Shown: positions 53,437 through 57,425 of the stretch, piece after piece | How the letters are laid out: each line of letters begins with the position of its first letter | Numbering within the stretch: position 1 is the stretch's first letter | Assembly: GCA_964570895.1 (NCBI GenBank) | Contig: CAZMZD010000006.1 | Location: 11,447-75,446 of the forward strand | Origin: an uncultured Gammaproteobacteria bacterium | Lineage (GTDB): Bacteria; Cyanobacteriota; Vampirovibrionia; Gastranaerophilales; Gastranaerophilaceae | Direction of reading: 5' to 3' | DNA: 64,000 bases | Made by a program: the position numbers and the translations under genes | Notes under the pieces: generated by a model | Database searches by the model: none | What the model was told of the DNA's origin: nothing | Seen by the model: only the letters and a program-made list of their open reading frames with translations

Positions 53437-55122
53437 ATGAAAATGTCTAAACTCTTTGTAAAAACAAAACGTGAATTTCCATCTGACGCAGAAGCAATCA
53501 GCCACAAGCTTCTCGTGCGCGCAGGTTATATTAAAAAATTATCAAGCGGGATATATAGCTATTTGCCACTTGCCTGGAGAGTTATTCAAAAAGTTGAGCA
53601 AATTGTTCGCGAAGAAATGAACAAAGCGGGCGCACAAGAACTTCTTATGCCTTTTGTGCAACCTGCTGAAATTTGGCAAAAATCAGGCAGATGGGCAAAA
53701 TACGGCAAAGAGTTAATGAGAACAAAAGACCGTTCAGGAAACGAAATGTGCCTTGCACCAACTCATGAAGAAGTCATAACTTCAATCGCTGACGGGCTTT
53801 TAGACTCTTACAAGCAACTTCCGATTAACCTATATCAAATTCAAACAAAATTCAGAGATGAAATTCGCCCACGTTTCGGGCTTTTGAGAGGCAGAGAGTT
53901 CATTATGAAAGACGCTTACAGCTTCCACACGACTCAAGAATCTCTTGAAGAAGAATATGAAAATATGGCACGAGCATACACTGCAATATTTAACCGTTGC
54001 GGGCTTGAAACAAAAGCTGTTCAATCAGATTCAGGCGCAATCGGGGGCGCAGTAAGCCATGAATTTATGGTGCTCACAGACACAGAAGTCGGCGAAAATG
54101 ATGTATTTTACTGCACAAAATGCGATTATAGCGCAAACTCAAATCACGCAACTTCAAAATTAAATGTTGAAGAAACAGACGGCGGTTTTACAGAAGAAAA
54201 AACCGTTGACACGCCAAACACAAAAACCATTGAAGATGTTGCAAAATTTTTCAATGTTGACACAAACTGCATATTAAAATCCGTTCTTTATATTGTGGAC
54301 TCAAAACCTGTGATGGCAATGATTAGAGGGGATAAAGAAGTCGAAGAAACAAAACTTTTAAATGCTTGCGAAGGAATTGAAATTCGCCCTGCAACTGCTC
54401 TTGAAGCCGCTGAAATCACAGGCTCTGAAGCAGGATATTTAAGCTTTGTCGGACTTCAAGACAAAATTAAAGTTGTGTTTGACACATCAGCTTCCAAAAT
54501 GAAAAACTTTATAATAGGCGCAAATGAACCTGAAAAACACATTGTAGGCTACAATTTCAAAGAAATGCCTGAATTTGTGGACATTTCACTTGTTAAAAAA
54601 GGCGAAAAATGCCCAATCTGCGGCGAACCGCTGGATGTTACAAGAGGGATTGAAGTAGGTAACATTTTCCAATTAGGAACAAAATATTCAGCTTCAATGA
54701 ATGCGCAATATACAAACGAAAATGGCGAATTGAAACCTTATATTATGGGCTGCTACGGCATTGGCGTGACGCGCGTTGTGTCTGCCGCAATTGAAAAATT
54801 CCACGATGATTTTGGTATCATCTGGCCTGAAGCAATTGCACCATATAAAGTGATTGTTATTCCTGTAAACACTCAAGACGAACTTCAAATGAAAACTGCA
54901 ACTGAAATTTATGAAAAATTGCTTGCAGCAGGAGTTGAAGTTGTGATTGATGACAGAGATGAGCGCGCAGGTGTTAAATTCAAAGACGCTGACCTTATTG
55001 GCTTCCCATACAAAATTGTTGTAGGAAAATCAATCGCAGAAGGCAAAGTTGAATTCAAAAAAAGAACAGGCAAAGAAGCTGAACTTTTAACACCTGAAGA
55101 AGCTGTTAAAAAATTCATCTAA
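53437..55122 (+). CDS. proS: Proline--tRNA ligase (bacterial type with INS editing domain)
   Basis: 561 aa with HKLLVRAGYIKKL, FRDEIRPRFGLLRGREFIMKDAYSF, GCYGIGVTR and the anticodon-binding C-terminus. Confidence 0.95.
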   Translation: MKMSKLFVKTKREFPSDAEAISHKLLVRAGYIKKLSSGIYSYLPLAWRVIQKVEQIVREEMNKAGAQELLMPFVQPAEIWQKSGRWAKYGKELMRTKDRSGNEMCLAPTHEEVITSIADGLLDSYKQLPINLYQIQTKFRDEIRPRFGLLRGREFIMKDAYSFHTTQESLEEEYENMARAYTAIFNRCGLETKAVQSDSGAIGGAVSHEFMVLTDTEVGENDVFYCTKCDYSANSNHATSKLNVEETDGGFTEEKTVDTPNTKTIEDVAKFFNVDTNCILKSVLYIVDSKPVMAMIRGDKEVEETKLLNACEGIEIRPATALEAAEITGSEAGYLSFVGLQDKIKVVFDTSASKMKNFIIGANEPEKHIVGYNFKEMPEFVDISLVKKGEKCPICGEPLDVTRGIEVGNIFQLGTKYSASMNAQYTNENGELKPYIMGCYGIGVTRVVSAAIEKFHDDFGIIWPEAIAPYKVIVIPVNTQDELQMKTATEIYEKLLAAGVEVVIDDRDERAGVKFKDADLIGFPYKIVVGKSIAEGKVEFKKRTGKEAELLTPEEAVKKFI

Positions 55123-55124
55123 AC

Positions 55125-55883
55125 TTAGTTTTCATAAATAAATTTCACGATATCATCTGAAATTTCTTTTGATTGTTTAAGCAGCAATGTGCCTGCACCG
55201 CCCTTAGGATAAACCTTTAGGGACGATTGGGTTTGAATAAATTTTTGCAGAGTTTTCGCTTGGAATAAGAAATATTTATCCGTTTCAGTTGCAATCAAAA
55301 GGAATTTTGTCTTTTGATATTCTGAAATTACAAGCGGGGTGTTTAAGCCTTTAAATTTTTGAGTTGGCGAAATTAAAACCATTTTATCCGGTTCCGGTTT
55401 TAAGTTTTTGCCGGCTAAAATTGCCGTGTTAGCACCTAAATCAGCACCCACAAAAATTATGTGCTTATAGTCTACCATTGAATAGTGTTCTTTCAAGAAG
55501 TTAATTACTTCAAGCGTATCATTCGGGAACTTAAGCCACATCTTAGGCTTTAAATAACTTCTTGAAACATATCTGAAATTAACATTATAAACGCTTCTTC
55601 CATGCCCTCTCATATCAAGAGCAAAAACGTTATTGCCTTCTTTTGCAATTTTTGCAGGCAAATCGCCCCAATCGGCAGATTTACCGTTTACTGAATGCAG
55701 CATAAAGACAAGAGGCATTTTTTTATCGCGCACTTTTGAAGGATAAAAATCCCCAACAAGAACAAAGCCGTCTTTTGTTTCAATTTCCATTCTGACAACT
55801 GAGCCCTTCTTTTTTTGCCCTGTTGCAAAACAAATTGAAGTGCCTACAAAAAATATAATTAATAAAGCTAATAATTTTTTCAT
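55125..55883 (-). CDS. Secreted alpha/beta-hydrolase-fold protein
   Basis: 252 aa with a signal peptide and LDMRGHGRS. The nucleophile elbow reads GADLG (Asp where Ser is usual). Confidence 0.6.
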   Translation of the reverse strand: MKKLLALLIIFFVGTSICFATGQKKKGSVVRMEIETKDGFVLVGDFYPSKVRDKKMPLVFMLHSVNGKSADWGDLPAKIAKEGNNVFALDMRGHGRSVYNVNFRYVSRSYLKPKMWLKFPNDTLEVINFLKEHYSMVDYKHIIFVGADLGANTAILAGKNLKPEPDKMVLISPTQKFKGLNTPLVISEYQKTKFLLIATETDKYFLFQAKTLQKFIQTQSSLKVYPKGGAGTLLLKQSKEISDDIVKFIYEN

Positions 55884-55956
55884 ATTTATTATTTTACCAA
55901 ATTGTCAAAGCTTTTTTTCAAAAATAATACTTTTAGATTAGTTTTATTTTTTTTCT

Positions 55957-55983
55957 TAAATTTATTTCAAAAAATGCCGATTG
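55957..55983 (+). promoter_or_regulatory. Sigma28-type promoter candidate
   Basis: TAAATTTA-N11-GCCGATTG, equivalently TAAA-N15-GCCGAT. Confidence 0.55.
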
Positions 55984-55989
55984 ATAACA

Positions 55990-56059
55990 TGTAAAGCTAA
56001 ATGCTTTGCATTAAAACCTCCTCCCCAAGTCTAGTAGCCGCAGTTTGCGGCTTTTTTTT
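55990..56059 (+). ncRNA. Candidate small RNA (~70 nt) with exposed CCUCCUCCCC tract
   Basis: A weak 5' hairpin (56000-56012) is followed by unpaired aaaaccuccuccccaagucuagu (C/U tract at 56017-26). A 7-bp GC-rich stem agccgca/tgcggct with a U8 tail follows (56036-56059). No ORF with an RBS is present. Confidence 0.4.
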
Positions 56060-56119
56060 ATGCCAAGTGCAAATTCTTAAGATAACTTAACTAAAAATGG
56101 CGAAATGGCATGTTTTTTC

Positions 56120-56147
56120 TTGCATATTAAATTATTCTTGGTATGAT
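56120..56147 (+). promoter_or_regulatory. Sigma70-type promoter candidate for rpmG
   Basis: TTGCAT-N16-TATGAT, with a TGg extended -10. Confidence 0.5.
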
Positions 56148-56169
56148 ATTTGTATATGTGATAAAAAAT

Positions 56170-56195
56170 AACGGGTGAATGAAGCCCGTTTTTTA
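56170..56195 (+). promoter_or_regulatory. Terminator-like hairpin in the rpmG leader
   Basis: aacggg-tgaatgaag-cccgtt followed by tttt. It lies between the candidate promoter and the rpmG RBS. Confidence 0.4.
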
Positions 56196-56231
56196 AAACA
56201 AAAATTAACTAAACCCCAAAAGGAGCGAAAA

Positions 56232-56399
56232 ATGGGAATAAAAGGTAAAAATGACAGAATGGTTGTACTTGCTTGTGAAAACTGCAAAGAACGTAATTAC
56301 ACAACCACAAAAAACAAAAAAACTTTAAAAGAACGTATGGAACTTAAAAAATATTGCCCAAGATGCAATGCTCATACAGTTCACAAAGAAACAAAATAG
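56232..56399 (+). CDS. rpmG: 50S ribosomal protein L33
   Basis: The track ORF starts at GTG 56175. I prefer ATG 56232 with RBS aaggag. The 55-aa product contains CENC...CPRC, as in zinc-binding L33. Confidence 0.9.
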
Positions 56400-56418
56400 T
56401 TTTATCAATTAAGGAATT

Positions 56419-56491
56419 GCGTCCTTAGTTCAGTTGGTAGAACGTCGGTCTCCAAAACCGGATGTCGTGGGTTCGAGTCCTCCAGGGCGCG
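56419..56491 (+). tRNA. trnW: tRNA-Trp (anticodon CCA)
   Basis: Folds by eye as a cloverleaf. Acceptor stem gcgtcct/agggcgc, D-arm agttcagttggtagaac, anticodon stem tcggt/accgg with loop cuCCAaa, and T-arm gtggg-ttcgagt-cctcc. The rpmG-tRNA-Trp-secE position is classic. Confidence 0.9.
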
Positions 56492-56515
56492 ATTTTTAAA
56501 GAAAAGGTAACTTGA

Positions 56516-56731
56516 ATGTCAAATCAAAAAGAAAACAAAGTGTCATTACAAGATAGTCTAAAAAATTACTTCAAAGGCGTGAAGGCGGAATGGGGTAAAA
56601 TTTCTTGGCCACAAAAACCTCAAATTGTGAGCGAAACGATTATCGTGTTTATCGTTGTTGTTTTCTTCACATTGTTCACATACATTGTGGATTTGATATT
56701 TAAAGGTATTTTAGGTCTTATACCTCAATAA
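56516..56731 (+). CDS. secE: Preprotein translocase subunit SecE
   Basis: 71 aa with KGVKAEWGKISWP and a single C-terminal TM helix. It lies upstream of nusG. Confidence 0.85.
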   Translation: MSNQKENKVSLQDSLKNYFKGVKAEWGKISWPQKPQIVSETIIVFIVVVFFTLFTYIVDLIFKGILGLIPQ

Positions 56732-56744
56732 AAAGGGAAAAGTA

Positions 56745-57425
56745 ATGGCAAGAAAATCATCAAAAGTTGTTGTTAAATCAATGGATGAACTTGAAAATCA
56801 AGTGGAAGAAGTGACAGAAGTTAATGAAGAAGAAACTGTTGCTGCTGAAGAAACAGAAGTGAAAGTTGAAGAAAAAGCTCCTGTTAAAGTTGATAGCACA
56901 CCTAGAAAACATTGGTATATCGTGCATGTTTATTCAGGATATGAAAACAAAGTTAAAACAAATCTTGAAAAACGTATCGAATATATGGATATGGCGGATA
57001 AAATTTTCAGAGTTGAAGTTCCGCAAAAAACAATCACTCAAGTGAAAGCCGGAAAGAAAACTGAAAAGGAAGAAAAAATATTCCCAGGCTATGTTCTTGT
57101 TGAAATGATTATGACAGAAGAAACATGGTATGTTGTTCGCCACACTGCAGGGGTTACAAAATTTGTTGGCTCATCTAAAAAACCAATTCCTGCAAAAGAA
57201 AGCGAAATTAAAAAGATTATTCAAAGATCAACCGGCACGGTTCAAAAAATCGAACTCGATGTCAAAGTTGGCGACCAAGTTAAAATCTCCTCTGGTCCAT
57301 TTGCAGACTTTATTGGGGAAATTACAGAAGTTTACCCAGACAAAGCAAAACTTCGTGCAACTGTTTCAATCTTTGGTCGTGAAACTCCGGTTGAATTAGA
57401 ATATAAACAAATACAAAAAGTATAA
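56745..57425 (+). CDS. nusG: Transcription termination/antitermination factor NusG with acidic N-terminal extension
   Basis: 226 aa. About 50 E/V-rich residues precede WYIVHVYSGYENKV (NGN domain). The C-terminal KOW is GDQVKISSGPFADFIGEI. Confidence 0.95.
   Translation: MARKSSKVVVKSMDELENQVEEVTEVNEEETVAAEETEVKVEEKAPVKVDSTPRKHWYIVHVYSGYENKVKTNLEKRIEYMDMADKIFRVEVPQKTITQVKAGKKTEKEEKIFPGYVLVEMIMTEETWYVVRHTAGVTKFVGSSKKPIPAKESEIKKIIQRSTGTVQKIELDVKVGDQVKISSGPFADFIGEITEVYPDKAKLRATVSIFGRETPVELEYKQIQKV

Follow-up and report, generated by a model that had tools for sequence, protein, structure and literature searches.

The window analysed here, a 64,000-nucleotide stretch of DNA, contains within a 349-nt intergenic gap an element that is best explained as a stand-alone gene for a ~70-nt trans-acting small RNA (sRNA), transcribed by FliA (sigma-28) and ended by an intrinsic terminator, with fliP2-fliQ2 and fliA as candidate targets, and we judge this explanation to be likely. 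As read from sequence, the element is a real member of a previously undescribed gene family, a new one among predicted sigma-28-dependent trans-acting sRNAs, and its RNA probably pairs with G-rich ribosome-binding sites (RBSs) of flagellar genes. We base this reading on gene architecture, conservation, covariation of a hairpin, an unpaired seed, promoter boxes and co-occurrence with fliA, and from these we infer transcription, dependence on FliA, the identity of the targets and the direction of regulation. Searches of the literature returned no description of a regulatory RNA of Melainabacteria or Vampirovibrionia, and none for Yfr1 in combination with melainabacterial names.

The preliminary description of this locus had proposed sigma-28 boxes, a C/U tract and a terminator, and each of them is present at the position proposed, as listed in the table. 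The putative 5′ end of the sRNA lies 6–8 nt past the −10 element (GCCGATNN). A terminator scan of positions 55000–57000 returned the terminator of the sRNA as the sole terminator, and the distance from the element to rpmG, on the same strand, is 173 nt. The list of open reading frames (ORFs) in the window contains no plausible ORF with an RBS over the sRNA region, in agreement with the earlier statement that an RBS-preceded ORF is absent. The proposed sRNA layout of promoter, seed and terminator hairpin is also borne out, as the element has its own promoter and terminator, is non-coding, and stands among neighbours that vary.

Features of the sRNA locus, with positions counted from the first nucleotide of the window
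Feature	Position	Strand	Description and basis
Secreted alpha/beta-hydrolase gene	55125–55883	−	One flank of the gap; divergent from the sRNA
−35 element, sigma-28 (FliA) type	55957–55964	+	TAAATTTA; read from sequence
−10 element, sigma-28 type	55976–55983	+	GCCGATTG; 11 nt past the −35 element
5′ stem-loop	55989–56011	+	AUGUAAAGC-UAAAU-GCUUUGCAU; 9 bp, loop UAAAU; 55989–55997 paired with 56003–56011 in the fold
Predicted sRNA, ~70 nt	55990–56059	+	R1 covariance model, 73.1 bits, E = 9.5e-14
Single-stranded seed region	56012–56035	+	UAAAACCUCCUCCCCAAGUCUAGU; 24 nt, unpaired in the fold
C/U tract	56017–56026	+	CCTCCTCCCC; within the seed region
Ultraconserved core	56017–56037	+	CCUCCUCCCCAAGUCUAGUAG; comparison with homologues
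Rho-independent terminator	56036–56059	+	AGCCGCA-GTT-TGCGGCT (56036–56052) + T8; 7-bp stem, GTT loop; terminator scan and fold
rpmG	56233–56399	+ (same as sRNA)	Other flank of the gap; followed by tRNA-Trp, secE, nusG, rplK and rplA

Folding of positions 55985–56060 (76 nt) yields a structure of −21.3 kcal/mol with a z-score of −4.17, and 0 of 200 dinucleotide shuffles are equally stable. The fold is composed of three modules, a 9-bp 5′ hairpin, a wholly unpaired 24-nt middle and the terminator. Given these values, the 5′ hairpin does not fit its earlier characterization as a "weak AT-rich hairpin". The three-module fold is shared by 58 non-redundant RNAs of 66–94 nt (median about 80), among which the 5′ hairpin sequences are unrelated, often with a GAAA-type loop; the base of the terminator stem (GCCG/CGGC) is invariant, and the upper stem and loop differ. 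In 42 of the 58 homologues the 18 core nucleotides, and with them the C/U tract whose accessibility the preliminary description took as a test of its proposal, are wholly unpaired in the minimum-energy fold, flanked by the covarying hairpin and the terminator.

We scored the 5′ helix (helix 1) with an explicit four-pair hairpin on a MAFFT alignment made without regard to structure. Each of the four tested pairs contains compensatory double changes, and 81% of the cells are paired. The helix contains 48 double-change cells, compared with 16.1 ± 4.9 in shuffles (0 of 500 shuffles reach 48) and with 2–23 in slid controls, in which the partners were moved by 1–3 columns. MAFFT combined with RNAalifold recovers the terminator alone, because the 5′ hairpin is too variable. 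Judged by these double changes, the 5′ hairpin is a helix that alters its sequence yet keeps its pairing.

The element is conserved well beyond the genome of the window. When the intergenic region was compared by BLAST with 41 genomes from its order, each of the 41 proved to contain the 3′ half of the element, in unrelated genomic places, with identity of up to 100% over 27 nt and with unalignable flanks. The exact 23-mer CCTCCTCCCCAAGTCTAGTAGCC is present in at least 119 public contigs, and almost all of the matches listed carry the label of a Gastranaerophilales, Melainabacteria or "Cyanobacteria bacterium" MAG. More than 100 Gastranaerophilales/Melainabacteria genomes share an identical core, CCUCCUCCCCAAGUC(UAGUAGCCG), and variants of it occur in other families of the class. 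We collected 127 distinct copies for comparison and built a covariance model, R1, which was run on a 301-genome sample of the class and matches 97 of 99 members of the window's own family as well as 10 f18 genomes. Of the 301 genomes, 109 contain the exact 15-mer CCTCCTCCCCAAGTC (f1, f18, f20 and part of f14; a reversed control gave 1 match), and a more permissive search added family f11. The diverged copies of f18 and f11 retain the hairpin, the CCCCAACCUCCUCCCCAAGU core, the terminator and the promoter. Invariant in all lineages is CCUCCUCCCCAA(GU), usually with AA before it, a class-wide stretch that can also be given as AACCUCCUCCCCAA; the core extension CUAGUAGCCG is specific to Gastranaerophilales. 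Such conservation in relatives indicates that the element is more than a chance arrangement, and it answers the conservation check that had been suggested at the outset, with promoter, seed and terminator kept across the order and beyond. Photosynthetic cyanobacteria were rejected as a source of homologues: the 14-mer core occurs there inside coding sequence alone, at about the reversed-control rate, i.e. at chance level.

Most genomes carry one copy of the sRNA, including the window's own genome (1.82 Mb). Genome G028 has at one locus (L175, C4:50250-51050) three complete promoter-RNA-terminator units with 161-nt spacing, and at least 10 sRNA copies across its contigs, with the seed variant CCCCAAAGUCUGGUAG. 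Genus g23 (L182–L184) has an adjacent second paralogue that carries UCUCUUCCCCAAGUCUGGUAG and lacks the 5′ hairpin; in it, UCUCUUCCCC replaces CCUCCUCCCC.

The RNA was found, by the union of the searches, in 120 of the 301 class genomes. All 120 are FliA-positive, out of 197 genomes above the FliA cut-off, and the RNA was found in 0 of the 104 FliA-less genomes, which belong mainly to the large-genome family f12 and also to f17. For 77 FliA-positive genomes of the class (families f13, f15, f16 and f19) the RNA search returned no match. This co-occurrence, which is phylogenetically clustered, supports a link between the RNA and FliA, short of proof.

A −35 sequence TAAAGTTT and a −10 sequence GCCGATAA about 11 nt apart form the textbook consensus of sigma-28 (FliA/SigD). 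The consensus of the homologues is TAAAGTTT-N11-TGCCGATAA or, when anchored on the −10 element, tTAAAGtTTT-N11-TGCCGAtAA, in which TGCCGAtAA (GCCGA) is the most informative upstream block of 105 aligned copies. Specifically, the loose pattern TAAA[GTA]-N13-17-NCG[AT] is found upstream of 113 of the 127 copies, with a spacing of 15–16 in 102. The −35 element reads TAAATTT in copies from the window's own genus; promoters of family f18 read TCAAGTTT-N11-GGCGATAT or TAAAGTTT-N11-GCCGATAT, and those of family f11 read TAAAGTTT-N11-TCCGATAC and GCCGATAA. The sigma-28 promoter first proposed for a single locus thus recurs as boxes kept at a fixed upstream distance, in 113 copies and in f18 and f11 as well. 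In the window's own genome the pattern TAAA[GT]-N14-16-[GTA]CCGAT[AT] has just 25 occurrences over both strands of 1.82 Mb, which makes a chance match at the sRNA unlikely, and about eight of the 25 sites precede flagellin or other late-type genes. The same genome encodes FliA (TIGR02479, 243.9 bits against a cut-off of 189.6; C2:233628-234290), and the boxes seen at the sRNA recur ahead of a Flagellin_N gene and of several further genes. We infer that the sRNA is transcribed by FliA (sigma-28) polymerase.

Some of these promoters contain further motifs. A TGTAA[AC] box starts 24–25 nt ahead of TAAAG in 21 of 94 sRNA copies (loci L019–L139) and in about eight sigma-28 flagellar promoters of the window's own genome (e.g. 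C1:-60638, C3:+115699, C4:+72450 and C15:+17561), and a TAGATGA/TGGATGA box is located directly ahead of their −35 element. The counterpart of the extra upstream motif in the window, at 55932–55941, is degenerate, and family f18 carries TTTACA-N5-GTTACAA in place of the extra motifs. They might serve late flagellar promoters as an activator site or as an UP-like element.

To rank candidate targets, we scored the region from −40 to +15 of each gene by its cofold energy with a 27-nt seed oligonucleotide minus the energies of both separate folds. Percentiles refer to the window's own genome (G000) alone, with 1639 crudely called genes and heuristic start codons, a single-genome background that was mitigated by a matched neighbour-gene control. 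The 30 best of these 1639 genes include four Pfam-confirmed flagellar genes, encoding FliJ (rank 4), FliW (rank 6), FliP1 (rank 12) and FliP2 (rank 23). The fliA gene ranks 75 (4.6%), and its RBS, ACUUGGGGA-N6-AUG, is a 9-nt complement of UCCCCAAGU. The predicted duplexes most often use UCCCCAA. Duplex-fold scoring on unfiltered starts gave noise and was discarded. No perfect complement of the seed longer than 10 nt occurs in the genome; the longest, ACTTGGGGAG (10 nt; C11:7289, minus strand), overlaps the RBS of an 868-aa helicase-like gene in a region that looks accessory.

Because single-genome target lists are noisy, we tested the conservation of the predicted sites in orthologues. FliP2 orthologues of families f1–f10 (n = 23) have a median percentile of 1.5, and 15 of the 23 are at or below 5%, compared with 3 of the 69 neighbouring genes in the same loci (median 38.5 for all 92 genes, FliP2 included). 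The paralogue FliP1 of the main flagellar cluster (n = 26; median 22–24; 5 at or below 5%) and FliW (n = 22; median 53; 5 at or below 5%) were rejected, as their high rank in the window's own genome is not conserved in orthologues. Outside the order, FliP2 (n = 21) has a median of 46 with 0 at or below 5%, and a class-wide role as target is not supported. In the RNA-positive part of family f1, fliA (n = 28) has a median of about 8 with 8 at or below 5%, and in families f2–f10 (n = 16) a median of 32 with 1 at or below 5%, so that fliA as an order-wide target is not supported beyond part of f1. Within f1, 19 of 28 fliA genes have TTGGG in their ribosome-binding window, versus 41 of 1639 genes genome-wide, as part of a recurrent (A/U)UUGGGNAGG-UUA-AUG site. 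In two RNA-less members of the window's own family, the fliA TTGGG motif is missing as well (percentiles 31% and 93%). The choice of fliA is partly post hoc, since its 9-mer match was noticed first.

Control probes separate the sites from general features of RBSs in part. With the 16S anti-Shine-Dalgarno (anti-SD) tail as probe, the FliP2 median weakens to 29.6%, just 1 of the 23 orthologues stays within the best 5%, and the fliA median weakens to 43%, indicating that the fliP2 and fliA sites match the sRNA in particular and are not merely strong Shine-Dalgarno (SD) sequences. C-rich shuffled seeds give intermediate medians (17.6–23.0% for FliP2 and 13.1–20.6% for fliA), and part of the target signal is therefore compositional. 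Three genomes have the RNA and lack FliP2. From these comparisons, the RBS of fliP2-fliQ2 emerges as the best-supported candidate target, predicted across Gastranaerophilales, and fliA mRNA as a second, weaker candidate limited to part of the window's own family. The pairing of a C/U-rich seed with RBSs, as suggested in the preliminary description, thus gains comparative support at fliP2 within the order and weaker support at fliA, but the signal is gone outside the order.

The fliP2 gene is the first of a two-gene fliP2-fliQ2 operon apart from the main flagellar cluster, and the operon codes for paralogues of flagellar export-gate proteins. In the window's own genome the pair is encoded on the minus strand (fliP2, C1:375188-375940; fliQ2, C1:374912-375184), and fliM/N-like, fliO-like, fliP1 and fliQ1 genes are found at C20:7232-9888. 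Two FliP paralogues are present in most Gastranaerophilales and in several other families of the class. FliP2 bears a signal peptide, and its gene pair stands among non-flagellar genes; FliP1 belongs to the main flagellar cluster. Families f15 and f16 have no FliP2, nor do four f1 genomes, and FliW is absent from several relatives that likewise lack FliP2. In the window's own genome fliW (C2:183146-183820, plus strand) is directly followed by a csrA homologue (tblastn E = 1e-14 with a B. subtilis CsrA query), and a FliW-CsrA partner-switch module is probably present. In one genus (G014:C9, locus L270) the ribosome-binding region of fliW, CUAGACUUGACGAGGAG, contains a 9 + 6-nt seed complement with a cofold measure of −25.5 kcal/mol; fliW of this genus may be a lineage-specific candidate target, with nothing comparable in other fliW orthologues. 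A search of the window's own genome for Hfq with approximate queries returned no clear gene (best match E = 0.04).

Taken as a mechanism, the preferred reading would run as follows. Once late flagellar genes are on, active FliA would transcribe the sRNA, and the RNA would build up. The 5′ hairpin, free in sequence, would probably protect the 5′ end, while the C/U-rich core AACCUCCUCCCCAAGUC (plus UAGUAGCCG in Gastranaerophilales), placed within the 24-nt single-stranded stretch, would pair with ribosome-binding regions that are rich in G and follow the pattern (C)UUGGG(G)AG(G). Such pairing would hide the site from the 30S subunit and lower translation, and probably mRNA stability too. Initiation at fliP2-fliQ2 would be reduced, and in some lineages at fliA as well, so that the late class would exert negative feedback on early components; the repressive direction is the predicted one.

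Sigma-28 (FliA)-dependent sRNAs of the flagellar regulon are known from E. coli (UhpU, MotR, FliX and FlgO; PMC10578931) and from Campylobacter jejuni (CJnc170/FlmR; PMC11187230). The present RNA resembles them in its late-class FliA promoter and in post-transcriptional feedback on flagellar biogenesis, which here is predicted. The four E. coli sRNAs are UTR-derived (PMC10578931), whereas the present RNA is an intergenic stand-alone gene. Furthermore, it has neither sequence nor Rfam kinship with the E. coli and Campylobacter sRNAs, belongs to another phylum (Cyanobacteriota, class Vampirovibrionia), and differs in its ultraconserved anti-SD-like C/U seed and in its predicted targets, fliP2-fliQ2 and fliA. 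If the reading holds, late-flagellar-class sRNA feedback, hitherto worked out in E. coli and Campylobacter, would reach into a phylum far removed from theirs.

In other bacteria, LhrC1-5 (Listeria), RsaE/RoxS (Firmicutes) and RepG (Helicobacter) mask SD regions with C-rich seeds, some of them from sibling arrays. The present RNA shares with them an unpaired C/U-rich motif for G-rich RBSs or leaders, here by prediction, and tandem siblings in some genomes. It differs in having no sequence kinship with them (Rfam negative), in one long linear seed instead of several UCCC loops, and in predicted control by the flagellar sigma factor. Rfam 15 contains no family that matches the element at the gathering threshold (best isrK, 20.9 bits versus 50), the sub-threshold matches being look-alikes made up of a hairpin and a terminator, and variants from other families and orders returned nothing. 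Kinship with tRNA was rejected as well: tRNA-Ser(UGA) shares just CCUCCUCC in the 3′ strand of its acceptor, and all tRNAs share at most 8 nt.

Melainabacteria/Vampirovibrionia, the sister group of cyanobacteria, are non-photosynthetic and often live in the gut, and the element would be the first well-defined sRNA of this lineage, with a clear promoter class and a 15–24-nt seed identical in more than 100 species. The predictions for fliP2-fliQ2, of the flagellar export gate, and for fliA are open to test, the compact natural anti-SD-like seed would be useful for mechanistic study, and the R1 covariance model offers a means of annotating the gene as new MAGs appear.

Among the alternatives, a rather unlikely one is that the sRNA is real and driven by sigma-28 and acts mainly through a protein or the ribosome instead of specific mRNAs; it might compete for SD sequences in general, or titrate some factor by which the 16S 3′ end is recognised. 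In favour of this alternative, the FliP2 signal is gone outside the order and the core is still invariant there: a core of 14–15 nt is invariant over several orders, and the predicted mRNA sites are conserved in one order at most. ACCUCCU, the core of the 16S anti-SD, is common to the sRNA core and the 16S tail (GGAUCACCUCCUUUCU), and the ten or more tandem copies in some genomes would fit a titrating RNA. However, CCCCAAG, which lies outside the anti-SD copy, is equally invariant and is matched by UUGGG of the fliP2 and fliA RBSs, and a candidate protein was not identified. Base-pairing sRNAs, too, are known to occur as multicopy siblings. The 16S tail of relatives is canonical, and for that reason the idea that UUGGGGAG is an unusual SD sequence of the lineage was rejected. 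The 16S rRNA 3′ end is not recognisable in the window's own MAG (whole genome), so the anti-SD sequence was taken from related genomes.

We regard as improbable that the RNA is a melainabacterial counterpart of Yfr1 rewired under sigma-28 in flagellated lineages that lack photosynthesis, and/or a global anti-SD mimic, which would reprogramme translation of the G-rich-RBS class once the flagellum is complete. Yfr1 is a 54–69-nt RNA with a 6–10-bp 5′ stem-loop, an unpaired 16–20-nt segment and a GC-rich terminator hairpin with a U-tail, and its unpaired segment holds the ultraconserved, C/U-rich 5′-ACUCCUCACAC-3′ (PMC2190773). The idea of a counterpart comes from the shared phylum, the near-identical three-module blueprint and the hexamer CUCCUC common to both ultraconserved seeds. 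The present RNA has this architecture too, with an unpaired stretch of 24 nt and a total of 66–94 nt, and differs in a sigma-28-type promoter and a distribution that tracks flagellar genes. In addition, the Yfr1 undecamer ACUCCUCACAC is missing from the present core CCUCCUCCCCAAGUC, the best register giving 7 of 11 positions against CCUCCUCCCCA, and Yfr1 is not among the matches of the Rfam scan (96-nt query, E ≤ 10).

The short distance to rpmG on the same strand would suit a cis-acting leader, an attenuator or a read-through promoter of the rpmG-tRNA-Trp-secE-nusG-rplKA cluster in place of an independent gene, and we give this a very small chance. The neighbours of the sRNA vary among genera: the commonest, in 29 loci, is the divergently transcribed hydrolase, in the same arrangement as in the window, and the neighbour comparison found no downstream gene common to the sRNA loci. 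Moreover, a separate promoter-like site and a leader hairpin for rpmG lie past the sRNA terminator, and complete promoter-RNA-terminator units exist in tandem arrays. We consider it highly improbable that the core codes for the C-terminal end of a small peptide or that we are dealing with a short mobile repeat (MITE/REP-like): TAG TAG stands 3′ of the core and some genomes have multiple copies, but an ATG-started frame reaching the core is absent in 37 of 58 homologues, with the rest divided 6/7/8 over the three frames, an SD sequence is absent, the part upstream shows the covariation of an RNA helix, the copy number is one in most genomes, and every copy has its own promoter and terminator and lacks terminal inverted repeats.

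Between the sRNA and the RBS of rpmG, the plus strand at 56119–56195 contains a TTGCAT-N16-TATGAT promoter-like site followed by an AACGGG-N9-CCCGTT hairpin and a T-run. The segment may serve the rpmG-secE-nusG cluster as a leader or an attenuator.
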